Virus genome (UHGV): UHGV-0142988
Strand: one strand, 5' to 3'
DNA from: a virus
Length of the DNA: 10,260 nt
This document shows, piece by piece, positions 1 through 10,260 of the stretch. Each line of letters begins with the position of its first letter. The stretch's first letter is position 1. Below the pieces are notes generated by a model, which saw only the letters and a list, made by a program, of their open reading frames with translations, made no database searches and was not told the origin of the DNA. The position numbers and the translations under genes are program-made.

Positions 1-38
1 CGAGTCTCGTGGGCTTCGGAGATGTGTATAAGAGACAG
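1..38. other. Sequencing adapter remnant (Nextera/Tn5 mosaic end, one-base indel) at contig start; artefact
   Basis: Positions 20-38 read AGATGTGTATAAGAGACAG, the 19-bp Tn5 mosaic end, preceded by GTCTCGTGGGCT(T)CGG, the Nextera read-2 adapter with one extra T. Confidence 0.85.
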
Positions 39-42
39 CTCA

Positions 43-238
43 TGTCCGCCCCACACGGACACTTCCCCAAATTTGTCCGTCCACCACGGACACTCACAGA
101 CACAGATGTCCTCTGTACGCACACAACGGACAAAATAATAGTGCAATATACACAACTATTACTGGAAATCAATCCAATAATTGTGCACATTGCACTATAA
201 AAATCAGTTATTTTAGAACATTATGCTCTTGTGTCCGT
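43..238. repeat. Terminal-region short repeats TGTCCG(T)/ACGGACA: two hairpin-capable inverted pairs (~43-61, ~74-92) plus solo copies (~126-132, ~232-238)
   Basis: Six copies of the 6-7-mer within ~200 bp directly after the adapter; the first two pairs are inverted repeats with 5-7 nt spacers. Confidence 0.6.
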
Positions 239-269
239 GTGTGAGAGACACATACAGGGGTGATGTTTT

Positions 270-283
270 CGAACATGTGTTCT
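270..283. promoter_or_regulatory. Candidate LexA/DinR SOS box (Cheo-box-like, cGAAC-atgt-GTTCt), with an overlapping GTTC-tat-GAAC
   Basis: GAAC-N4-GTTC with 5' flanking C, ~17 bp upstream of the predicted -35. This is the only such site I found in the window. Confidence 0.5.
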
Positions 284-299
284 ATGAACAATATGGACT

Positions 300-328
300 T
301 TGAATAAATCTAAATAATTACATATAAT
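300..328 (+). promoter_or_regulatory. Candidate sigma-A-type promoter for the rightward early operon
   Basis: TTGAAT (-35, ~300-305), 17-bp spacer, TATAAT (-10, ~323-328); ~30 bp upstream of a GAGGTG RBS and the ATG at 359. Confidence 0.5.
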
Positions 329-358
329 AATGTTATCAAATGAAAGAGAGGTGAACAG

Positions 359-508
359 ATGACAGATTACGAAGAAAGCTACAAAAATTATCTTGCATGG
401 CTCACTCCACGTGAGCTATTGCATGAATACAAGATCATGCGTTTACCGTGGCGTTATCGGGAACGAAAATGGATCAAAGAAGAAATAGAAAGTAGGTGTG
501 TGTACTAA
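359..508 (+). CDS. Small hypothetical protein (49 aa; MTDYEESYKNYLAWL...), below the ORF-track length cutoff
   Basis: ATG with GAGGTG RBS ~7 nt upstream; first ORF after the promoter; read by eye. Confidence 0.35.
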   Translation: MTDYEESYKNYLAWLTPRELLHEYKIMRLPWRYRERKWIKEEIESRCVY

Positions 509-602
509 TGTTGGATGCTATATTGTGGTTTGGTTTTGGTGCTATATTAATTTTTCCGTATGGAGTTTGGTGTGGGGCAAAATGGTCAGGAGGATATAAG
601 AA

Positions 603-806
603 ATGAAAAATTATTGTGATATATGTTTTACATGTAATGATGCTGAAGTTTGTCATTCATGTAGCCAGCCAGAGATTTGTTCCGAATTTAAAAAGTGTTT
701 TGATCATAAGCCTTATATAATGTGGGAGAAAATGACAAGTTTTGACGATATCATGAGATGTGTTGAGAAATGGAGGGTGTACAATGAGCAGACCGTTAAA
801 CAGTAA
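603..806 (+). CDS. Small Cys-rich protein (67 aa), possible zinc-ribbon-like
   Basis: AGGAGG RBS ~7 nt upstream of the ATG; CxxCxxC...CxxC spacing in the N-terminal 32 residues (seven Cys). Confidence 0.55.
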   Translation: MKNYCDICFTCNDAEVCHSCSQPEICSEFKKCFDHKPYIMWEKMTSFDDIMRCVEKWRVYNEQTVKQ

Positions 807-1041
807 GAAGTCATGGTATAAGGTATATATCAAAGAATTAAATACACCGAATATCATTAAAAGTCAGTGTAAATATAAATGCGATTATCTATTAGTAAAG
901 GCATACACAGGATCAGTCGCAATGGCAATCGTGCAGGACTACGTTGTCGAGTTTGAAGAAAATTTCCGTCCTGTATACTACAACAAATTGGAGGGAGGTG
1001 TTCCTATTGACAACAAAAAAGTCTTATTTGAAGAAGAGTAA
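784..1041 (+). CDS. Hypothetical protein (86 aa from internal ATG; track ORF begins at 760)
   Basis: GGAGGG RBS ~6 nt upstream of the ATG at 784; overlaps the 3' end of the previous gene; protein-like composition. Confidence 0.45.
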   Translation: MSRPLNSKKSWYKVYIKELNTPNIIKSQCKYKCDYLLVKAYTGSVAMAIVQDYVVEFEENFRPVYYNKLEGGVPIDNKKVLFEEE

Positions 1042-1648
1042 ACCACAAGGTCTTATAAGAACAAAAGACGATTATACGCCGCTTGCTCTCGAGTTAACAT
1101 GGGATATGAAAGACGTTAGAAAAGAGTATTCACGGTTAAGATCAATCTGGCGTAAACGTTATGAAAGATTACTGAAATCTGACTATAAAGATATCAACCT
1201 TGTAACGGATCGACCGATCCAACGTTACAAGCAGTTGAAAGATATAACAAGTGATAGAGAACTCTATCACTTGTTATCTGAACTATCAACTATTATAGGA
1301 TCAGATCGAACTACAGTAACAGGATTGAAAAAACGGGAAAAAGAGCAGATGGAACACATCAACGATGTGTATGGAACAGAGTTAAAAACGCACGAAGATT
1401 TATTAAATTTTGGACGTTTCATGGAACAGTTACGGGATTTTGCATCTGATAGAATATACGATTCTGATTTTGCAGTTGATTTATATTCTGATGGTGAAAA
1501 GCTGAGTACGGGCAAAATGTTAGAGCTATACAAGGAATTTTTGAAAACTGGATCACGTAACATCGAAAAATTGAAATCTGGCATAGCAAAGAAAGAAAAA
1601 GCGAAACGTCAGAAGAGGAAAGCAGGCAAACGTAAACGTAGGAGGTAA
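1007..1648 (+). CDS. Candidate terminal protein (~213 aa if started at TTG 1007; track ORF 944..1648)
   Basis: Directly upstream of, and translationally coupled to, the protein-primed DNA polymerase (its stop lies in the polymerase RBS). Strongly basic C-terminal tail KKEKAKRQKRKAGKRKRRR. GGAGGGAGGTG lies ~6 nt upstream of TTG 1007. Function is from synteny, not homology. Confidence 0.45.
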   Translation: MTTKKSYLKKSKPQGLIRTKDDYTPLALELTWDMKDVRKEYSRLRSIWRKRYERLLKSDYKDINLVTDRPIQRYKQLKDITSDRELYHLLSELSTIIGSDRTTVTGLKKREKEQMEHINDVYGTELKTHEDLLNFGRFMEQLRDFASDRIYDSDFAVDLYSDGEKLSTGKMLELYKEFLKTGSRNIEKLKSGIAKKEKAKRQKRKAGKRKRRR

Positions 1649-1651
1649 CAC

Positions 1652-3733
1652 ATGGAAAATCTGTATACTATTGACACATATAATTATAATAGAATACGGA
1701 ATTTACCATGTTTACATGATACTAGGTCTAACAAAGGAAGTAAAAAAGCAAAAGGTTATAAAAATTGTCTGTGTGCTTTCGATATCGAAACAACTAGATT
1801 GGAAGATATCGAGCAGTCAATAATGTATATCTGGCAGTTTTCAATTCTTTTTCTTGATGATTTACATGTTGATACGATAATTGGAAGAACGTGGACAGAA
1901 TTTGAGTTATTTCTTGATAATCTTATGAATGACGATAACTATGCATATTATATGATTTTTGTTCATAATCTTTCATATGAATTTCAGTTTTTGCGTGGTA
2001 TATATACATTTTCACCGGATGAAGTTTTTGCCATAAAATCACGTAGAATATTGAAATGTGAAATGTTAGAGCGTTTCGAGTTTCGTTGCTCATATTTACA
2101 AACTAATATGTCACTAAATACGTTTACCTCAAAAATGAAAGTAAAACATCAGAAATTATCTGGTGAAAAATTCGATTATAGTAAAAAGCGTTTTCCATGG
2201 ACAGAACTAACCGATTATGAAATAAAGTATAGTACATACGACACGATTGGACTAGTTGAAGCAATGTATAAACGTATGATACTGTCAAATGACAATCTAT
2301 ATACACTACCATTAACGTCAACCGGTTATGTACGTCGTGAAACGAAAAAAGCCATGTATGGTTGGTCACGAAAACACAAGGATATATTTCCCACTATAGA
2401 TGTTTTCGATCTGCTAGAGGAGGCGTTTCGGGGCGGAGATACTCACGCTAACCGTTATTACTCAGGAACCGTGATACGTGCATATGGTAAAAATATTCTA
2501 GGAATCGGTTCATATGATAGGTCATCCTCTTATCCTGACGTTGTGTTGAATTGTGTTTTCCCGATGACACGTTTTGTATATATCGGATCAATAGATGAAT
2601 CTGATATAGATAAGAAACTGGATAGAGGAAAAGCACTCTTATTCCGATGTAAAATAACAGGTATTGAGCAGATCGACAAGTATTACGGATCGCCCTATAT
2701 TTCATATTCAAAATGTAGAAATGTTTCATGTGAAACACTTGACAATGGGCGTATTTTAAGTGCTGACTATATTGAAATAACGCTCACTGATATTGATTAT
2801 GAGATAATGAAACGTGAGTACAAATGGAAACATTTTGAAATAACAGAGTGTTATGAGAGTAAATACGGAGCATTGCCAGAACCGTTGAAAGACATTTTCC
2901 GTAAATATTATACTGACAAAACAGAGTTAAAAGGAATCGTGGAACAGGAACTTTTCTACAACTTGCAAAAGGCTTTGCTTAACGCTGGCTATGGAATGAT
3001 GGTTCAATCACCCGTGAAACAGTCGTTAATATTTACAGAATCGGCAGAAAACATATATACAGTTGATGAAAATGTTTCACGTGAAACATTACTCACTAAA
3101 TATAACAGAACAGCTTTCTTGCCTTATCAATGGGGTGTTTGGGTAACAGCATGGGCACGCCAGCGATTGAAAGAGGGTATAAACATAGTTGGAGATCGTT
3201 ACGTTTACAGCGATACGGATTCAGTAAAATATATAAAAGTAAGAGGTGATAATATTGACGAGTTATTTGATAGATACAATTCTGAGAGAAAAGAGCAAAG
3301 TATCTCCAATTCCGCATACGCAACAGACCGTTATGGCGTTAAACATTATATGGGGGTGTATGAATTCGAGGATACGTATACTGAATTCTCCACCATTGGT
3401 ACAAAAAAATATGTCTATAGAACTAAAGATGGAAAACTACACGCAACAATCGCAGGAGTTAATAAAAAGCTTGCACCGGATGAGTTGGAAGAACATGGAG
3501 GAATTGAAGCTTTCAAAACTGGATTTACCTTTTTACGATCAGGAGGAACTGAAAGCGTGTACAATGACGTTCCTTATGGGGATTACACCGTGGAAAATCA
3601 TGTTTTAAAAATTACACAAAATGTAGTTATCAGACCGTCAACTTACACAATAGGAATAACAGATGAGTACCGTAGGATTTTGGCAGACGCAAGAACATTA
3701 AAAGAATTTAAATATACTTTTGACAAAAATTAA
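1652..3733 (+). CDS. Protein-primed family-B DNA polymerase (693 aa)
   Basis: AGGAGG RBS. Exo I FDIETT, Exo II HNLSYEF, Exo III YSTYDTIGLVEAM, motif A YDRSSSYP (Dx2SLYP-like), motif B KALLNAGYG (Kx3NSxYG-like), motif C YSDTDS, KxY in TIGTKKYVY. Confidence 0.95.
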   Translation: MENLYTIDTYNYNRIRNLPCLHDTRSNKGSKKAKGYKNCLCAFDIETTRLEDIEQSIMYIWQFSILFLDDLHVDTIIGRTWTEFELFLDNLMNDDNYAYYMIFVHNLSYEFQFLRGIYTFSPDEVFAIKSRRILKCEMLERFEFRCSYLQTNMSLNTFTSKMKVKHQKLSGEKFDYSKKRFPWTELTDYEIKYSTYDTIGLVEAMYKRMILSNDNLYTLPLTSTGYVRRETKKAMYGWSRKHKDIFPTIDVFDLLEEAFRGGDTHANRYYSGTVIRAYGKNILGIGSYDRSSSYPDVVLNCVFPMTRFVYIGSIDESDIDKKLDRGKALLFRCKITGIEQIDKYYGSPYISYSKCRNVSCETLDNGRILSADYIEITLTDIDYEIMKREYKWKHFEITECYESKYGALPEPLKDIFRKYYTDKTELKGIVEQELFYNLQKALLNAGYGMMVQSPVKQSLIFTESAENIYTVDENVSRETLLTKYNRTAFLPYQWGVWVTAWARQRLKEGINIVGDRYVYSDTDSVKYIKVRGDNIDELFDRYNSERKEQSISNSAYATDRYGVKHYMGVYEFEDTYTEFSTIGTKKYVYRTKDGKLHATIAGVNKKLAPDELEEHGGIEAFKTGFTFLRSGGTESVYNDVPYGDYTVENHVLKITQNVVIRPSTYTIGITDEYRRILADARTLKEFKYTFDKN

Positions 3734-3781
3734 CATATGTGTTATAATTCATGTAAAGAGATATTACAAGGAGGTGATAAT

Positions 3782-4036
3782 ATGAAAATTACACGTTCAT
3801 TAACAGTTAACAAGATCAACGTTATCTGCTACGATCCTGAGAATAAGTGTGAGTTTGTACAGGAAGTTGGTTTGATCGGAAATCTTACTGATGAGCAGAT
3901 CAGCAAAGAGATTAAAAAAAGAAATTTTGGAATTGTTATTGATTGGGAAAGAACATCAGAAGAAACAAAATTATACGGAATGGATGCCGAAGTGTTTTTA
4001 AAAAATGCAATCATTATTAAAGAAAAGGAGAACTAA
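3782..4036 (+). CDS. Hypothetical small protein (84 aa from internal ATG)
   Basis: AGGAGGTG RBS ~6 nt upstream of the ATG at 3782; sits between polymerase and ATPase genes. Confidence 0.55.
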   Translation: MKITRSLTVNKINVICYDPENKCEFVQEVGLIGNLTDEQISKEIKKRNFGIVIDWERTSEETKLYGMDAEVFLKNAIIIKEKEN

Positions 4037-4039
4037 ATC

Positions 4040-4474
4040 ATGGCAAAGAATTATACTATCATTAAATCATCGGGAAACCTTGATACCTATTCAGAATATG
4101 AACTCATCGAGTCACCTGCAATCGTTTCACTTAAAAACGTAGAAAACAAAGGACTTATCTGTGTTGGAGCGTGGGTGAAATATCTTACCACCGACAATAT
4201 CGGAAATGAAATAACCTGCATTTCAGTGCAGGACGCAAACACAGGAGAGGTATTCTCAGGTCAGTCAGCACCTTTCAGAGAAACATTCGAGGCTGTTACC
4301 GATCGTATTTCTGACATGGACGAAGCTCCAGAAATGTTTTTCATCGAGGTTCTTCATAGACAGTCAAAGTCAGGTCGTGATTATCTTATGTGCGCACTTG
4401 TTTCCCCGGATCGTGCTTTTGCCCGCATGGGATATACTGAAAAGAACATTCCTATGCCAGAGCCCCAGAAATAA
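4040..4474 (+). CDS. Hypothetical protein (144 aa); an SSB or DNA-binding role is only a positional guess
   Basis: AAGGAGA RBS before the ATG at 4040; tightly packed with neighbours; no motif recognised. Confidence 0.6.
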   Translation: MAKNYTIIKSSGNLDTYSEYELIESPAIVSLKNVENKGLICVGAWVKYLTTDNIGNEITCISVQDANTGEVFSGQSAPFRETFEAVTDRISDMDEAPEMFFIEVLHRQSKSGRDYLMCALVSPDRAFARMGYTEKNIPMPEPQK

Positions 4475-4475
4475 T

Positions 4476-5525
4476 ATGTTATCGTTATACGAAAATAGCG
4501 GGTATCTATCGATACCCGCTATTTTAGGATATGGACAAAAGTTTAATTACATCTGGGGTGGCCGTGGTACGGGGAAAACTTACGGTGCTCTTAAATACTG
4601 TATTGAACATAAAAAAATTTTTGCTTATATGCGATCATTGCAAACACAAATTGATATGATTAAAATTCCAGAACTTTCACCTTTTAAAAAATTAAATCGT
4701 GATTTAGGATGGTCAATATATCCGAAAAGTGTCGGGAAAAATATTGCTGTGTATTATAATGCAGAAATTGACGAAAATGGTAAAATAAAATATACTGGAG
4801 ATATACTCGGTTATTCCATAGCGTTAAATACATTTGCCAATTTACGAGGTTTTGATGCATCAGACGTTGAGATAGGAATATATGATGAATTTATCCCCGA
4901 AAAACGTGAACGCAAAGTTGAAAATGCTGGATATGCTTTTAAAAACGCATATGAAACAATGAATCGAAACCGTGAACTTGATGGAATTAATCCGATACAG
5001 TTTTTATTGTTTTCTAATTCTGAAAGTTTATCATGTGATATGTTTATAGAGAATAATTTAATGGAAAAAGTATCGAGCATGGATATTAATAAACAATCTA
5101 TGTCTATTATACGTGATAGAGGTATTGGACTTTTTAACTTGTATGATTCGCCGATTTCTGAAAAGAAAAAAGACACAGCTCTGTATAAAATGTCTGGATC
5201 AGATTCAGCATTTAACAGGATGGCACTAGGAAATGAATTTTATTCCGCTGATTATTCAGGAATTAGAAGCATGAACATTAAAGAACTGATACCACTATGT
5301 AAAATGGACGCTATTACAATATATCAGCACAAGAGAAAAGACTTAATATATGTAACACGGCACAGCTCTGGTACACCGCCAGAGTATTCCAATACAGATA
5401 AGGATGTAAAAGCTTTCAGACGAGATTTTATTTATTTATGGGATATGTATTTATCAAACAAGGTGCTGTTTGAGGATATCACAAGCAAGTCCCTATTTGA
5501 GATTTATTTTAAAAATAAATATTGA
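4476..5525 (+). CDS. P-loop ATPase, phi29 gp16-like DNA encapsidation ATPase candidate (349 aa from the ATG right after the upstream stop)
   Basis: Walker A GGRGTGKT near the N-terminus and Walker B EIGIYDEF about 110 residues later. Size and motif spacing fit phage packaging ATPases of the ASCE/FtsK-HerA class. Confidence 0.75.
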   Translation: MLSLYENSGYLSIPAILGYGQKFNYIWGGRGTGKTYGALKYCIEHKKIFAYMRSLQTQIDMIKIPELSPFKKLNRDLGWSIYPKSVGKNIAVYYNAEIDENGKIKYTGDILGYSIALNTFANLRGFDASDVEIGIYDEFIPEKRERKVENAGYAFKNAYETMNRNRELDGINPIQFLLFSNSESLSCDMFIENNLMEKVSSMDINKQSMSIIRDRGIGLFNLYDSPISEKKKDTALYKMSGSDSAFNRMALGNEFYSADYSGIRSMNIKELIPLCKMDAITIYQHKRKDLIYVTRHSSGTPPEYSNTDKDVKAFRRDFIYLWDMYLSNKVLFEDITSKSLFEIYFKNKY

Positions 5526-5671
5526 TTTTGTGTTTTATATCTGATATTATCTTTAATAGAAAGACAAGTGTTCGTGGCACACGTACAACACGTCGGGAGC
5601 GTGGGATCATAAGAATCCAATGTGCATGAGCATGTACAGCTCAAGAATTTGTAACACTTAATCTTTCATCA

Positions 5672-5708
5672 CATATGCAGAGTGTCAAAGCCTGCATATG
5701 TTTTGTTT
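5672..5708 (+). terminator. Candidate intrinsic terminator after the ATPase operon
   Basis: 9-bp stem CATATGCAG / CTGCATATG with an 11-nt loop, followed by TTTTGTTT. Confidence 0.55.
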
Positions 5709-5754
5709 CACGTGAAACATTTATCACCTTTCTTTAATGTTTCACGTGAAACAT
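5704..5754. promoter_or_regulatory. Tandem palindromic operator-like sites: TGTTTCACGTGAAACA (~5704-5719) and ATGTTTCACGTGAAACAT (~5737-5754)
   Basis: Two perfect 16-18-bp palindromes 33 bp apart, directly upstream of a TATAAT-like element (~5774-5779) and the RBS of the gene at 5791. Confidence 0.6.
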
Positions 5755-5790
5755 GTTATATGTTGTGCTAATATATAATGGAGGTGAAAT

Positions 5791-5988
5791 ATGGACGTTA
5801 ACTCATTATCAACTCTTATCAGTAACATTGGTGTGCCTTGCGCCTGCCTTATTGCGACTTTCTATCTTTGGCAGAAAGAAACGGATTCTCACAAAGAAGA
5901 AATGAAACGCATGACAGACGCACTCAACAACAACACTCAGGCACTTACAAAACTCACAGAACATATCACAGGAAGTGAAAAAAAATGA
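5791..5988 (+). CDS. Small single-pass membrane protein, holin-like (65 aa)
   Basis: GGAGGTG RBS; one hydrophobic segment (LSTLISNIGVPCACLIATFYLW) then a charged C-terminal tail; ATGA overlap with the next gene. Confidence 0.55.
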   Translation: MDVNSLSTLISNIGVPCACLIATFYLWQKETDSHKEEMKRMTDALNNNTQALTKLTEHITGSEKK

Positions 5989-6230
5989 CGATTAACTACA
6001 ACAAAAATATCAGAGGTGTGTATATCGTCGCAACGAACACAGGGCCTCTGATGGTCAGGGCAGAGCCTAGTACAGACGGAACAGTTATCGCAGAAATGCC
6101 GAAAAACACAAAATGCATCTGTCTAGGATGCTATTCTGGAAACTGGTATGCAGTCATTTACGAACATGACAGTATCATTTCCACCGGCTTTTCTCACAAA
6201 AATTATCTCAGGAGGGATTATAAGATATGA
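5985..6230 (+). CDS. Stand-alone SH3b-like cell-wall-binding domain protein (81 aa)
   Basis: Pattern GVYIVATNTGPLMVRAEPSTDGTVIAEMPKNTKCICLG...GNWYAVIYEH...GFSHKNYLRR resembles bacterial SH3 domains; no catalytic domain attached. Confidence 0.6.
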   Translation: MTINYNKNIRGVYIVATNTGPLMVRAEPSTDGTVIAEMPKNTKCICLGCYSGNWYAVIYEHDSIISTGFSHKNYLRRDYKI

Positions 6231-6421
6231 CGTTAGACAACTTAATTACACTCATTTCAGCAGGATTCACGAAAGAAGAGATCCTCACAATGTCAGGTAC
6301 AGTCACCCAGCGTGCCCCACAGCCACAGCCACAGCCACAGCCACAGCCACAGCCACAGCCACAGCCACAGCCACAAAATACAAAGCAGAAATTGCAAAAT
6401 CAAGATCTAAATACAAATTAA
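6227..6421 (+). CDS. Small protein with a (PQ)10 linker-like repeat (64 aa)
   Basis: ATGA overlap with the upstream gene; contains the in-frame hexamer repeat. Confidence 0.5.
   Translation: MTLDNLITLISAGFTKEEILTMSGTVTQRAPQPQPQPQPQPQPQPQPQPQNTKQKLQNQDLNTN
6317..6375. repeat. Tandem hexanucleotide repeat (CCACAG) x ~9.8
   Basis: Perfect tandem copies read directly in the sequence; encodes PQPQ... in the 6227 ORF frame. Confidence 0.95.
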
Positions 6422-6608
6422 GTGATATTTTAATTCGTGTAGAAAAAAATAGCCTTTATTTTTATTTGCGTAAATGATTCCTTTACTTTTAGCACTAAAA
6501 GCAAGAAAACTATAATTTTATAATTTTCTTTGTTTAAGGCCAGTAATGTTTTCGGCGTTTCAATTGTCCTCGACGAAGGCCGCTTCCGCGACCTTATCTA
6601 GCCCGTGC

Positions 6609-6965
6609 TCATTGAGAACGATCAACTACCATGTATGTTGGTTGACACAGGCTGCCGCGTTCCTGTAACCAGTAGTAATCAAGATCCGCAACACGCATAT
6701 CCAACCCCGAATCCACACGATTGATCTGTAACCGCAGCCCTACAGTATCTTTGTACGATAAACCAGATTTAACATTGTACTTGTACTTAACCCCGCTTTC
6801 TTCTTCAAAAGATTTGAGATAAGGGGGGATTTGCTTCTGAATTTCTTTCAAACAAATAACTTCCCCATCAATTACGAACGGCTTTTCAGTTTTACCGTCA
6901 GGAATAGTAGCCGCAATTGTGGTTAATGGAACTATCGACAACAGTACTGATAATGCTCTTTTCAT
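6609..6965 (-). CDS. Secreted small protein with N-terminal signal peptide (118 aa from the MKRALS start)
   Basis: AAGGGGA RBS before the internal ATG; MKRALSVLLSIVPLTTIAA is signal-peptide-like with no lipobox Cys; ~20 nt downstream of the partner gene. Confidence 0.6.
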   Translation of the reverse strand: MKRALSVLLSIVPLTTIAATIPDGKTEKPFVIDGEVICLKEIQKQIPPYLKSFEEESGVKYKYNVKSGLSYKDTVGLRLQINRVDSGLDMRVADLDYYWLQERGSLCQPTYMVVDRSQ

Positions 6966-6987
6966 CTGTTCTTCCCCTTGAATATAA

Positions 6988-7599
6988 TCATTGTTTAGAA
7001 CAAATTTGTGTAATGGTTGCATTATGGTTAAATTCAACATCAATTACTTTTATAGTATTATCATTAAGTACAGATACAAAATAATTACTTGACGAATTTC
7101 CGTACTTCCTTGAACCATCTGCTGCAATCTTGTTGAATTTAGCAGTATACACACTATCTTTATCGCCGGGAATTGGCATTCGACTGATTAATTCATTATC
7201 GGAAATAGTATAATAAATTAAAATTCCTTTATCTGAATAGTAACCTGAATCGCTTTTTGTTCCCTGTCGAGTTTGTATTATTGCATCGAACTTATCGCAT
7301 TTATAAACATTGGTTTTGGCCTTTTCAGTACTGGTAGACGTTGAAGCCTTTACATCAGTACTTTTATCTTGTGAAACAACCCCGGAACCGATACCTACCG
7401 AAACGACAAAGACAATAAAACTCATGCCTAACGACGTAATCAAAGTACGGAACTTTCCCCGACCTTTATTTCTGGAATAGTTTGAAACTTTCCTGAAAGT
7501 AAGTACTGCAAGGATCACACAAATGATGAAAACGACAAGCCCGGCCATAAAATCCCTCAAACGTTGTGTATCAAAGGCAATCATAGTATCACTTCGCAA
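6988..7599 (-). CDS. Two-TM membrane protein with Ser/Thr-rich ~130-aa extracytoplasmic domain (203 aa, or 198 aa from ATG 7584)
   Basis: Hydrophobic segments AGLVVFIICVILAVLTF and LITSLGMSFIVFVVSVGIGSGVV separated by a basic loop; TTG start in the track with an in-frame ATG 5 codons later. Confidence 0.6.
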   Translation of the reverse strand: MRSDTMIAFDTQRLRDFMAGLVVFIICVILAVLTFRKVSNYSRNKGRGKFRTLITSLGMSFIVFVVSVGIGSGVVSQDKSTDVKASTSTSTEKAKTNVYKCDKFDAIIQTRQGTKSDSGYYSDKGILIYYTISDNELISRMPIPGDKDSVYTAKFNKIAADGSRKYGNSSSNYFVSVLNDNTIKVIDVEFNHNATITQICSKQ

Positions 7600-7601
7600 T
7601 A

Positions 7602-7624
7602 CATTGATCGATTAAAGCGATCAA
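7602..7624. promoter_or_regulatory. Palindrome ATTGATCG-attaaag-CGATCAAT in a divergent control region (7600-7700) that also carries three ATCAAT copies
   Basis: 8-bp inverted repeat just upstream of the leftward gene start and upstream of the rightward leader. Confidence 0.35.
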
Positions 7625-7699
7625 TTTTTGATTTTCGATCGGTTAAATCTATCAATATCTATTAATTGAAGACAAATCAATAGGTAAAAACGATCAGAC

Positions 7700-8100
7700 G
7701 TTGGTCAGTACTTCGGAAACACCAGAAGTATGGTTTGGGTCTGCCGTTTAAACGCCCTCAGAAAACCGCTAAGGTCTCTTTATCGCATATGGCTTGGGAT
7801 TTCAGCCTTTGGCTAAAATCGCTTTCAGGGGGGCTTCTTGTGCGTTTTGTCGGGAACACCATCATGGAGGGGGATAAATCGGATCGAAGTCGCTTCGCTC
7901 TGGTCAGTACTGGAAGGGTTAGCTTATCTGGCGAGGGAAGATGAATTGCCAGGCTTCATGAAGATGGTTGGTTTTGTGGACAAGAAGAACTGCCGTTTTG
8001 AGTATTCCCCCTCACACCCAACAAACCTACCCATTAGCAAGGGGGAGTACTTTCTCGTAGTATACAGAACGAATAAATTCTTTGTATACTTCCGTTTTAT
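7700..8100 (+). ncRNA. Candidate structured 5' leader / cis-regulatory RNA (class unassigned)
   Basis: ~400 nt without a convincing ORF, visibly more GC than flanks. 12-bp stem (~8001-8012 / 8040-8051, one G-U pair) with a C/A-rich 27-nt loop, then an AT-rich hairpin (~8059-8090) plus U-tract just before the downstream start. The 11-mer TGGTCAGTACT occurs twice (~7703, ~7901). Confidence 0.35.
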
Positions 8101-8111
8101 CCTAAAGCGAT

Positions 8112-8801
8112 TTGATTATGGACGAGAATAATAAAGAAGTTATTGAAATAAGACCAGAAGATAAGGACTTTTTCGCAGAATTTATTGATTGTGAAGGTCC
8201 AATTATCCAAGATTCAATTGATCATAAAAAAATCACCCTCGCACTTGATAAAGCCCACGACATAAGAAAGTTTGAAATAGATCTCTATTGGAAGCGTGCT
8301 ACATACTTCTTCGCATTCTTCACTGTAATAACAGCTGCATTTGGTTATTTGTTCACCCATGACAACTATACTTTCTTAGCCCCTGCACTTGCGATCATTG
8401 GTTCTGTTTTTGCTTTATGTTTTTGTTATGTGAATATCGGTAGTAAGTATTGGCAAGAAAACTGGGAGTTTATAATTGATAAAATTGAATATTATGTCAC
8501 AGGAAACCTTTATAAACTTTTCTTCTTCGAAAACCATAGAACCAAACGCCCATCAGTCACTAAGATTAATATATTTCTAAGCAAGCTAATTATAGCTACA
8601 TGGTACGCTTGCTTTATACTTTCCATGCACCAGATATGGAATCAAAGCATGGTATTAAATGTCTCTTATATTATCCTTACCATATATAGCACTGGAACGA
8701 CATTATATTACTGCGATAAAACTGTTGCAGACATATCGAACAATGATAAAGAATCACCACGATTCTTTAGATTCAGAAATCCTAATTACATAAAATCATA
8801 A
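8112..8801 (+). CDS. Multi-pass (about 4 TM) membrane protein with ~60-aa soluble N-terminal domain (229 aa; probable ATG at 8118)
   Basis: Four hydrophobic segments (ATYFFAFFTVITAAFGYLF; FLAPALAIIGSVFALCFCYVNI; INIFLSKLIIATWYACFILSMH; MVLNVSYIILTIYSTGTTLYY); weak RBS. Confidence 0.65.
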   Translation: MIMDENNKEVIEIRPEDKDFFAEFIDCEGPIIQDSIDHKKITLALDKAHDIRKFEIDLYWKRATYFFAFFTVITAAFGYLFTHDNYTFLAPALAIIGSVFALCFCYVNIGSKYWQENWEFIIDKIEYYVTGNLYKLFFFENHRTKRPSVTKINIFLSKLIIATWYACFILSMHQIWNQSMVLNVSYIILTIYSTGTTLYYCDKTVADISNNDKESPRFFRFRNPNYIKS

Positions 8802-8805
8802 ACAT

Positions 8806-8824
8806 GGGGGCATTTGATGCCCCT
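8806..8824 (+). terminator. Candidate terminator hairpin GGGGCAT-ttg-ATGCCCC just after the stop codon
   Basis: Perfect 7-bp GC-rich stem with 3-nt loop; the downstream U-tract is weak on plus and better on the minus strand. Confidence 0.45.
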
Positions 8825-9065
8825 TGTAAATTGATAATCCGACCTAAAAACACTTTGAGTACTTCATTTGTCAGTACTGTTATCTGTTTGAGCGAAAGCG
8901 AGTAACGGCTTTGGCGTGCTTTCGAGTACTGCGAGAAAAACGCAAAGTTACGATCTGATATTTGGTTTTTATAGAGACTAACAAGCAAAGCGAAGTTAGG
9001 CTCTTTAGATACTGAATATCAGTAAGGCTAATACATTCAAAATATCAGGTGAAAGGCAATATTAT

Positions 9066-9194
9066 ATTAAGTTACGGTTATTCACCCCACTGCATAAAAC
9101 AAGAATAACCTACTGATTTTACGGACTTTTATTTGAATAATAATTCACTAATAATCATGATAACCGTATTTCTTAGTTTTAAGTTACGGTTATA
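9066..9194. repeat. 15-bp direct repeat TTAAGTTACGGTTAT (~9067-9081 and ~9179-9193) with an inverted partial copy ATAACCGTA (~9161-9169)
   Basis: Read directly; lies in a convergent intergenic region abutting the 3' end of the gene at 9202. Confidence 0.7.
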
Positions 9195-9201
9195 GGTACG
9201 A

Positions 9202-9669
9202 TTAAACAATGGTTCGTAGATATGCAATCAGATCTTTCGCTGAGGCATTACTGTTCAATAATTCCTGTACTGCGTTCTTCTGTTCGTCGGTTAATGGCTT
9301 ACCAGGCAATGCTTTCTTTAGTCCACATAGCGTACCACCTTCTTCTACAAACTTATCCAATGCTTTAGCAACTGCGGTACAGGCTAATTTGTACTTCTCG
9401 ATAGATGATTCACTTGCTGCAAATTTCTTCATCTGATCTGAACGGGTTAAGGTAAGATAATACTTAACCTGTACTTTTGAAAGCTCTGTAGCGTGTTTGA
9501 CGATGTAGAAGACATCTTTAACAGGTAACTTGTACTTTCCCAATGATTTACACTCTTGAATCGTCTGGTTAATTATTAGAGTTGCTTCTGATGTTAGGCC
9601 ACTGTAAGTAACACGTTTTAGTGCTTCTTCTAACTTTTTATTGTTATAAATCCTTTCTTTTTTTGCCAT
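9202..9669 (-). CDS. Hypothetical protein (155 aa)
   Basis: Clean ORF with ATG start; protein-like composition; no motif recognised. Confidence 0.6.
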   Translation of the reverse strand: MAKKERIYNNKKLEEALKRVTYSGLTSEATLIINQTIQECKSLGKYKLPVKDVFYIVKHATELSKVQVKYYLTLTRSDQMKKFAASESSIEKYKLACTAVAKALDKFVEEGGTLCGLKKALPGKPLTDEQKNAVQELLNSNASAKDLIAYLRTIV

Positions 9670-9759
9670 GATAAATACCCCTATGGAAGATGTTAATTAA
9701 TATTGGCCTGATGTATTCCTAATACTCAGGCTTTTTATTTAAGAAGAAAATGGGTGGGG

Positions 9760-10026
9760 TTATACTCCACGTACCTTCTTGAACCATTCACGATACTCTG
9801 GCACTTTATTTTTGCGTAAATTGCTAATGAAATCTTGATCGCAATTAACTTTAAGTAAATTACAAATCCTAGCACTTGTCATATCACTTAGTAGGATATT
9901 CTCGTACTGAGAGAATGTTAGTTGAATGAAATTAACCTTTTCTTTCTTTCGAACTGATTTGTTCAATGACTTCCTATTAGTCCTGATTTTATTTTTTGTT
10001 TTTATTTTACCGTTTTTCTTTGACAT
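9760..10026 (-). CDS. Small basic protein with possible C-terminal helix-turn-helix (88 aa)
   Basis: GGAGTG RBS before the ATG; very basic N-terminus (KKNGKIKTKNKIRTNRK) followed by an HTH-like segment. Confidence 0.55.
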   Translation of the reverse strand: MSKKNGKIKTKNKIRTNRKSLNKSVRKKEKVNFIQLTFSQYENILLSDMTSARICNLLKVNCDQDFISNLRKNKVPEYREWFKKVRGV

Positions 10027-10260
10027 TTTGTCACTCCTCTAAATTAAAATTCATCTCATGGTTAACCTCCTACGGCTGTTGTTTATGTTCGATTGGCTAT
10101 ATGTTAACGGGCAAAATTGCCCCAATCAAGGAATAGTTGCAACTTTTTCTTGACAAGATCATTACTATTCAAGTCAAAAAATCATATATCATTTAGGCAC
10201 TATCTTTGGGTAATGACTCCAACTTATTGATAGTGTTTTATGTTCAGATAATGCCCGATG

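Follow-up and report, generated by a model that had tools for sequence, protein, structure and literature searches.

The DNA analyzed here is UHGV virus genome UHGV-0142988, a stretch of 10,260 nucleotides referred to throughout as the window. It contains exactly four copies of the palindromic core GTTTCA-NN-TGAAAC, starting at positions 2723, 3074, 5705 and 5739; four palindromes of this kind had been reported in a preliminary description of the window, and an exact motif scan returned all four. Two lie inside the gene for a protein-primed-type family B DNA polymerase (PolB) and two in the spacer upstream of a block of late genes of a small phi29-like phage. As set out below, their sequence corresponds to parS, the chromosomal site bound by the bacterial protein ParB/Spo0J, and they are named parS-A to parS-D accordingly:

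parS-A, 2722-2737: TGTTTCATGTGAAACA, one central mismatch to the consensus parS; inside PolB, codons NVSCET.
parS-B, 3073-3088: perfect TGTTTCACGTGAAACA; inside PolB, codons NVSRET.
parS-C, 5704-5719: perfect 16-mer; in the intergenic spacer, where it overlaps the T-tract of the terminator before it.
parS-D, 5738-5753: perfect 16-mer within a perfect 18-bp palindrome (5737-5754); just upstream of the late-gene block.

parS-B is itself embedded in a perfect 20-bp palindrome (3071-3090, AATGTTTCACGTGAAACATT), parS-C and parS-D are separated by 34 bp from centre to centre, and parS-D is located 20-25 bp upstream of a TATAAT-like sequence preceding the gene that starts at 5791. A palindrome of this form fits a site for a dimeric DNA-binding protein, as had been proposed. 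The two coding copies are read in the PolB frame (open reading frame, ORF, 1652-3733) as AAT GTT TCA (C/T)GT GAA ACA. The preliminary description had pointed to their shared phase and to the peptide NVS(R/C)ET; both are as described, but the phase is weakly informative as evidence because one of the three frames creates TGA and only two are open. The claim that the copies exceed chance was borne out, since shuffled versions of comparable phage genomes contained 0.01-0.1 16-mers per genome even with ≤3 mismatches, against four 16-mers with ≤1 mismatch in the 6.3 kb of phage sequence in the window. A further match with 2 mismatches at 4124-4137 was set aside as being at chance level.

The 16-mer TGTTTCACGTGAAACA agrees at every base with the chromosomal parS consensus to which ParB/Spo0J binds. 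In the ParB biochemistry literature the consensus parS is given as TGTTTCAC-GTGAAACA and the Noc site as TATTTCCC-GGGAAATA; in B. subtilis, whose chromosome has 10 sites in all, parS reads TGTTNCACGTGAAACA, and gut-bacterial genomes scanned with exactly this 16-mer at ≤2 mismatches have 1-10 sites per whole genome. Using as criterion a 16-bp palindrome matching TGTTNCACGTGAAACA or TGTTTCACGTGAAACA with ≤2 mismatches (after Livny et al. 2007), three of the window sites scored 16/16 and one 15/16. A ParB paralogue, Noc, binds the related 16-bp palindrome TATTTCCCGGGAAATA, the Noc-binding site (NBS) of Firmicutes. The present sites can be told apart from it: in every half-site of all four, the two positions that separate parS from the NBS hold the parS bases, G at position 2 and A at position 7. 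The lead to parS came from a full-text literature search for the central decamer, which returned almost exclusively ParB/parS papers, and was then verified. The motif had earlier been described as unrecognised and its binding factor as unknown; this is superseded, as the 16-mer equals the consensus that pipelines for locating parS search with and that ParB studies employ, co-crystals and assays included. Since all 16 bases match, the motif is not an unknown regulator box, and the expected binding factor is the host ParB/Spo0J. The palindromes are very probably parS sites that a host ParB would recognise. Boxes for Rex, CcpA (cre), PadR (ATGT-N8-ACAT), TnrA and Cra were also compared and rejected for wrong half-site orientation or spacing. 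A search of window positions 1-6400 against Rfam (E up to 1) gave only chance miRNA-like matches arising from pairing between the two palindromes, and RNAalifold likewise paired parS-C with parS-D, which is trivial for identical palindromes.

The carrier is, from its gene content, a linear, protein-primed, phi29-like human-gut phage of ~14 kb. The marks of this group comprise gp16 (PF05894), the capsid protein Phi29_MCP (PF25622), a connector (PF05352), an adaptor (Ad4 PHROG), a p6-like protein, PolB and inverted terminal repeats. The features in and around the parS sites are as follows:

359-508, 603-806 and 784-1041: small early proteins of unassigned function.
1007-1648: putative terminal protein, by position only.
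1652-3733, plus strand: ORF of the protein-primed-type PolB, hosting parS-A and parS-B.
3782-4036: p6-like double-stranded-DNA-binding protein.
4040-4474: 144-aa protein.
4476-5525: gp16-type packaging ATPase (PF05894).
5671-5701, plus strand: terminator hairpin with T-tract at 5701-5708, ending the upstream small-RNA unit and abutting and overlapping parS-C.
5791-5988, plus strand: holin-like protein (PHROG holin match, E = 1.3e-4), first gene of the lysis/structural block downstream of the parS pair.
After the 5791 holin-like gene: SH3 protein gene.

The spacer between the gp16-type ATPase gene and the 5791 gene is 265 bp long. All genes of the phage are on one strand, and in full genomes the lysis/structural block continues with the SH3, capsid, tail, connector and adaptor genes. 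PolB is 33-35% identical to the DNA polymerases of Amedibacillus phage, Salmonella phage astrithr and other small podophages (tblastn); it gave no Pfam match, and its Exo and Pol motifs were recognised by visual inspection, whereas the PolBs of other parS-bearing phi29-like contigs do match PF03175. Several relatives (L030, L017 and L046) have inverted terminal repeats of 120 bp or more: their first 120 nt, reverse-complemented, give their last 120 nt. The terminal region (window 39-260) contains repeated CACGGACA-type motifs and, near 138-198, an inverted repeat with 23-bp arms. A scan of 17 phage proteins yielded no ParB domain, and the small proteins gave no match to a helix-turn-helix or any other DNA-binding domain. 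Stop-codon recoding in the seemingly ORF-free right 1.9 kb of relatives was considered and rejected, as a long ORF there runs off the end of the locus.

The window as a whole is an assembly chimera consisting of an adapter remnant (1-38, which we take to be of Nextera/Tn5 type), the left end of this small AT-rich phage (39 to ~6317, starting ~5 nt inside the end of the L030 contig) and E. coli chromosomal DNA (6317-10208, 99.9-100% identity to E. coli chromosomes). The last 52 bases (10209-10260), presumably the end of an IS1 element, match thousands of E. coli genome positions. The phage and E. coli parts are joined inside a (CCACAG)n repeat present in both partners, which identifies the join as chimeric and is what misled the assembler. 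In the phage, this repeat encodes a long (Pro-Gln)n tract in a protein at the scaffold/head gene position (6227-6375 in the window, 6191-6679 in relative L004). There is no copy of GTTTCA-NN-TGAAAC in the E. coli-derived part; as a consequence of the chimera, the right 7.5 kb of the phage genome, with two further parS sites, is missing from the window.

Conservation of the sites was analyzed in relatives retrieved from IMG/VR with PolB as query. This gave 66 loci, mostly from human-gut data, 64 of which shared 76-100% PolB identity and were scored as relatives; many are on contigs of 13.7-14.3 kb. The parS sites recurred at the same places in the 64 relatives. parS-B was perfect in 51/64 and had ≤1 mismatch in 62/64. 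In the spacer, two sites with ≤2 mismatches were found in 59 of 61 relatives and both were perfect in 34 of 61, with a centre-to-centre distance of 34 bp in 45 relatives, 37 bp in eight and 31-35 bp in six. parS-A is the weakest and least constrained site (17 relatives perfect, 16 with one mismatch, 16 with two and 15 with three or more) and is frequently broken by a synonymous TCA>TCC change together with CGT>AGT. In full genomes, a fifth site (E) at ~11.3 kb showed ≤1 mismatch in 40/45 relatives, and a sixth at ~8.7 kb is degenerate, (G/A)GTTTCACGTGGAACA. The 32 near-complete genomes contained 3-5 sites with ≤1 mismatch and 4-6 with ≤2, and the sites are intragenic in two of four cases in the window and four of six in full genomes.

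The preliminary description had further suggested that selection acts on the DNA of the coding copies rather than on the peptide, and comparison of polymerase homologues agrees with this. Across the PolB alignment, third codon positions had a mean entropy of 0.59 (0.80 at four-fold sites). Over the six codons of parS-B, the third-position entropy was 0.13 against the gene median of 0.60, ranking 3-6 of 687 windows, with a weaker signal for parS-A (rank 30 of 687). At site E, silent-position entropy was 0.08 where the median was 0.60, making this the second most conserved of 309 windows. In PolB homologues at 32-51% identity the flanking KCR…DNGR persists, and the residues under parS-A and parS-B are variable or indel-rich, the parS-B peptide falling within an indel-rich PolB linker. 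The conservation of silent positions within peptides located in variable linkers argues that selection acts on the DNA. One relative reads site E in the other open frame, as MFHVKH, so that the DNA is kept and the peptide changed; this was seen in a single contig and is therefore possibly due to an assembly indel.

The region around the parS-C/parS-D pair contains other conserved elements. The terminator shows compensatory double changes in four stem pairs among 36 relatives (columns 160-163 with 177-180). Upstream of it, directly after the gp16-type ATPase gene, is a candidate small RNA of ~150 nt (window 5522-5708, plus strand) with its own TG-extended promoter (TTGATT-17-TATTAT). Its body is near-invariant in the 36 relatives, with compensatory changes in three internal stem pairs and a fold z-score of -3.2; it gave no match in Rfam and could be an analogue of the phi29-style packaging RNA (pRNA). 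A consensus scan for sigma-70-type promoters identified 300-328, 3720-3748 and 5522-5550. The perfect-consensus promoter at 3720-3748 (plus strand, TTGACA-17-TATAAT with an upstream TG) spans the PolB 3' end and the spacer before the p6-like gene, and would drive the p6-like, 144-aa protein and ATPase genes. The same scan found no sigma-70-type promoter between parS-D and the 5791 gene, which makes a factor-dependent late promoter plausible. The pair had been read as a tandem operator of the operon starting at 5791. Its placement at the T-tract and upstream of a TATAAT-like sequence stands, but an operator role does not follow, as most sites are intragenic and the distance from parS-D to the -10-like sequence varies by indels of several bp among relatives; the sites thus have no fixed promoter distance and are not restricted to promoter regions. 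In other phi29-like lineages, moreover, the 16-mer turns up at unrelated positions.

The closest known counterpart is the parS set of phi29 (also of Nf and B103), by which, with host Spo0J, the phage genome is reportedly trapped in spores. In the account of Meijer et al. 2005 given in PMC2731898, phi29 has five parS sites and Spo0J is involved in segregation of its genome into the prespore; the same account describes repression of phi29 promoters by Spo0A boxes. Our own scan recovered phi29 matches at 10445, 15903, 17243 and 18760 (15/16 each) and 3528 (13/16), and two sites each in Nf and B103. Like phi29, the present phage is a protein-primed linear podophage without its own ParB, and its host-type parS sites, about five in number, are scattered along the genome and mostly intragenic. 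In phi29, site 17243 is located directly after gene 16 and next to terminator TD1; here, parS-C follows gp16, the small-RNA unit and the terminator. The two nevertheless differ in several respects. The sites described here match the perfect pan-bacterial consensus, as opposed to four 15/16 B. subtilis-type sites and one 13/16 site in phi29, and they are denser (4-6 in 14 kb versus 5 in 19 kb), with two in PolB and two arranged in tandem between genes. The present phage also lacks Spo0A boxes, has all its genes on one strand and infects a gut organism; proteins common to both phages are only about 25-30% identical.

Site E provides a more specific parallel. It lies within the final 12 codons of the connector gene (PF05352; PHROG 'upper collar connector'), whose 314-aa product is 27% identical to phi29 gp10. 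BLASTP aligned the connector tail …KNVSRETSGGDDD with phi29 …ENVSRGTSDGETNE, placing both parS sites in the same columns (11287-11325 in L004, 10445-10484 in phi29, L072). The connector-tail site is common to Nf and B103, and in the parS scan was absent from GA-1, Karezi, Cp-1 and others. The alignment may reflect ancestry, or convergence on a tolerant C-terminal tail upstream of the ribosome-binding site of the next gene.

Sites of this kind also occur in other phi29-like lineages. An exact 16-mer scan of IMG/VR matched at least 120 stretches, of which 80 loci were listed. Among those 80, 12 were phi29-like by tblastn, representing several lineages 24-50% identical to each other and to the present family, and among the 17 loci listed from the human-gut dataset 3300045988, 11 were phi29-like. 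The enrichment of phi29-like phages among loci with the parS 16-mer, although unquantified, is suggestive. Two unrelated phi29-like contigs each had several sites: L158 (IMGVR_UViG_3300045988_082053, 15 kb) with five perfect sites and a sixth with one mismatch, and L102 (IMGVR_UViG_3300042922_000412, 17 kb) with four perfect sites. Both contain gp16 and PolB by Pfam, and L158 also a connector and a phi29-type capsid; the capsid match of L102 was by tblastn only. In L158, one site is located directly after the gp16 stop codon, as in phi29, and a second 182 bp further on, in a ~490-bp non-coding gap. Among cultured phages, two parS sites were found in HM2 (Clostridium), one in CH17P1 (Hungatella), one in AD70P3 (Amedibacillus) and none in Cp-1, BD811P2, EF62phi, GA-1, Karezi and Salmonella phage astrithr; to our knowledge, the host of the last lacks a chromosomal ParABS system. 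The cultured parS-positive relatives thus infect Bacillus, Clostridium, Hungatella and Amedibacillus. The strong Shine-Dalgarno sequences of the present phage, together with its nearest cultured relatives (Clostridium HM2 and the Amedibacillus and Hungatella phages), indicate that its host is probably a gut Firmicute. ParABS is present in 12/12 gut bacteria of the OMM12 set.

Taken as a whole, we consider it likely that this ~14 kb phi29-like gut phage, which has no recognisable ParB, carries host-type chromosomal parS sites that recruit the ParB of its host; ParB binding, host identity and selective benefit are inferred here. As to function, we see an even chance that the sites serve co-segregation or spore hitchhiking by analogy with phi29. 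In such a scheme, host ParB (Spo0J) dimers would nucleate at the 4-6 sites and, loaded as CTP-dependent sliding clamps, coat the small phage genome. Phage DNA would then behave like origin-proximal host DNA, which the ParABS/SMC machinery keeps together with the chromosome origins and moves along with them. A genome whose lytic cycle is delayed could then be inherited by daughter cells or captured in the forespore, as proposed for phi29. Multiple sites on a short linear genome may keep ParB clamps reloading as these slide off the ends. The arrangement has points in common with known systems. Chromosomal parS/ParB of bacteria uses the same 16-bp palindrome, often intragenic and in clustered copies; the present sites differ in being on a virus, not near oriC, and in that the element does not encode the cognate ParB. 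Chromosomes have 1-10 parS per genome in gut bacteria and 10 in B. subtilis, compared with 4-6 in 14 kb here. The proposed Par-type inheritance without integration would resemble that of the plasmid-prophages P1, N15 and EF62phi; those encode their own ParA/ParB and centromeres, and the present phage encodes neither and would borrow the host site. In our analysis, EF62phi had a ParA gene and no host-type parS.

Several observations weigh against recruitment of host ParB for inheritance. The cultured phi29-like phages GA-1, Karezi and Cp-1 have no parS sites, nor do PolB relatives at 43-51% identity, so the trait is lineage-specific and dispensable. Within the family, parS-A is decaying in about half of the relatives, and the close relatives L065 and L001 have only parS-B in the stretch covered. 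Intergenic conservation does not single out the C/D pair because the whole intergenic region is highly conserved. For the Spo0A box TGTCGAA, 1.7 copies per genome would be expected; there are 0-1, with none in the window, in comparison with six copies in phi29 clustered at promoters and the right end. A spore-specific role is thus unsupported by that marker, and no sporulation-coupled switch like that of phi29 is visible. As regards the host, PolB had no relative in 100,044 reference genomes and no match in the PLSDB plasmids, and homologues of the tail lysin (Amidase_5 + Phage_lysozyme2) were found only on contigs of ≤19 kb, which name no host; this last result fits a non-integrating phage. 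At 90% identity, a single tail-lysin cluster comprises as many as 1,890 sequences. These phages are therefore very common in public metagenomes, and no integrated copy was seen.

Among other explanations, the sites could act as a decoy that binds host ParB to the benefit of lytic growth, hundreds of phage genomes with 4-6 high-affinity sites each titrating ParB from roughly 10 chromosomal sites and the phage profiting from the resulting disturbance of origin segregation, SMC loading or ParA(Soj)-DnaA control. This draws on the same parS sequence evidence as recruitment for inheritance, is consistent with the high density of sites (about one per 2.5-3.5 kb, versus the handful in an entire gut-bacterial genome, 1-10) and would suit the absence of Spo0A boxes, the pointer to a dormancy programme. 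Titration, however, has no obvious need for positions that are fixed across distant lineages, such as the connector 3' end, and the phi29 literature favours prespore segregation. These points make a decoy unlikely. We know of no precedent for one.

A role as a transcriptional brake appears slightly less probable again. Here, host ParB bound to or sliding from the tandem pair would repress the late/lysis genes, so that ParB occupancy would time lysis in place of the Spo0A control of phi29, an arrangement compatible with ParB recruitment for inheritance. In P. aeruginosa, ParB reportedly represses promoters beside parS sites, to go by the title of a paper. The two perfect sites 34 bp apart between the terminator and the first late gene, the failure of the consensus scan to find a sigma-70-type promoter downstream of the pair and ahead of the 5791 gene, and the absence of Spo0A boxes would all fit such a brake. 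It is at odds with the indels of several bp between parS-D and the -10-like sequence, with the intragenic location of the remaining sites and with other lineages, in which parS is not consistently found at the early/late boundary.

An operator for a dedicated regulator of the 5791 operon, encoded by phage or host and with the intragenic copies as auxiliary operators, is very improbable. The palindromic pair is indeed promoter-proximal, and the small early proteins of unassigned function (359-508, 603-806 and 784-1041) offer candidates, but no helix-turn-helix or DNA-binding domain was detected in the small proteins, and most sites are far from recognisable promoters. Moreover, all 16 bases are those of the consensus parS, and the parS 16-mer also occurs in phi29, Nf, B103, HM2, CH17P1 and metagenomic phi29-like lineages that share only core genes. 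An RNA-level element in mRNA processing or termination can be dismissed almost entirely: the sequence can fold as a hairpin (8-bp stem, ACGU loop) and parS-C adjoins a terminator, but its arms, conserved or decaying, show no compensatory changes while the neighbouring terminator does covary, the motif is found in coding and non-coding contexts alike, and it is identical to a known DNA-binding site.

The occurrence of host-type parS on a phi29-like phage is known; what is worth follow-up is the spread across gut lineages and the aligned connector-tail site, a rare case of a non-coding signal that a gene has retained or acquired again although the encoded proteins share only about 27% identity. 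The perfect parS arrays in abundant uncultured gut phages and in other lineages suggest that the phi29 strategy extends well beyond Bacillus. It is possible, though at present doubtful, that such arrays are a general, so far unreported hallmark of many small protein-primed gut phages and not a peculiarity of Bacillus phages. If so, nominally lytic phages would ride ParABS into daughter cells or spores and pass between people inside spores, and, with no Spo0A boxes, the tandem pair at the late-gene boundary might make ParB a lysis-delaying switch. The sites also give a clue to host range, as only bacteria whose ParB recognises the canonical site could serve as hosts, and the phage family would be predicted to be enriched in spore fractions of stool. 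Borrowing of the host centromere would be a compact route to persistence, in the cell lineage or in spores, for a virus without integrase or partition genes, and offers a testable account of how 'lytic' small podophages may persist in the gut.

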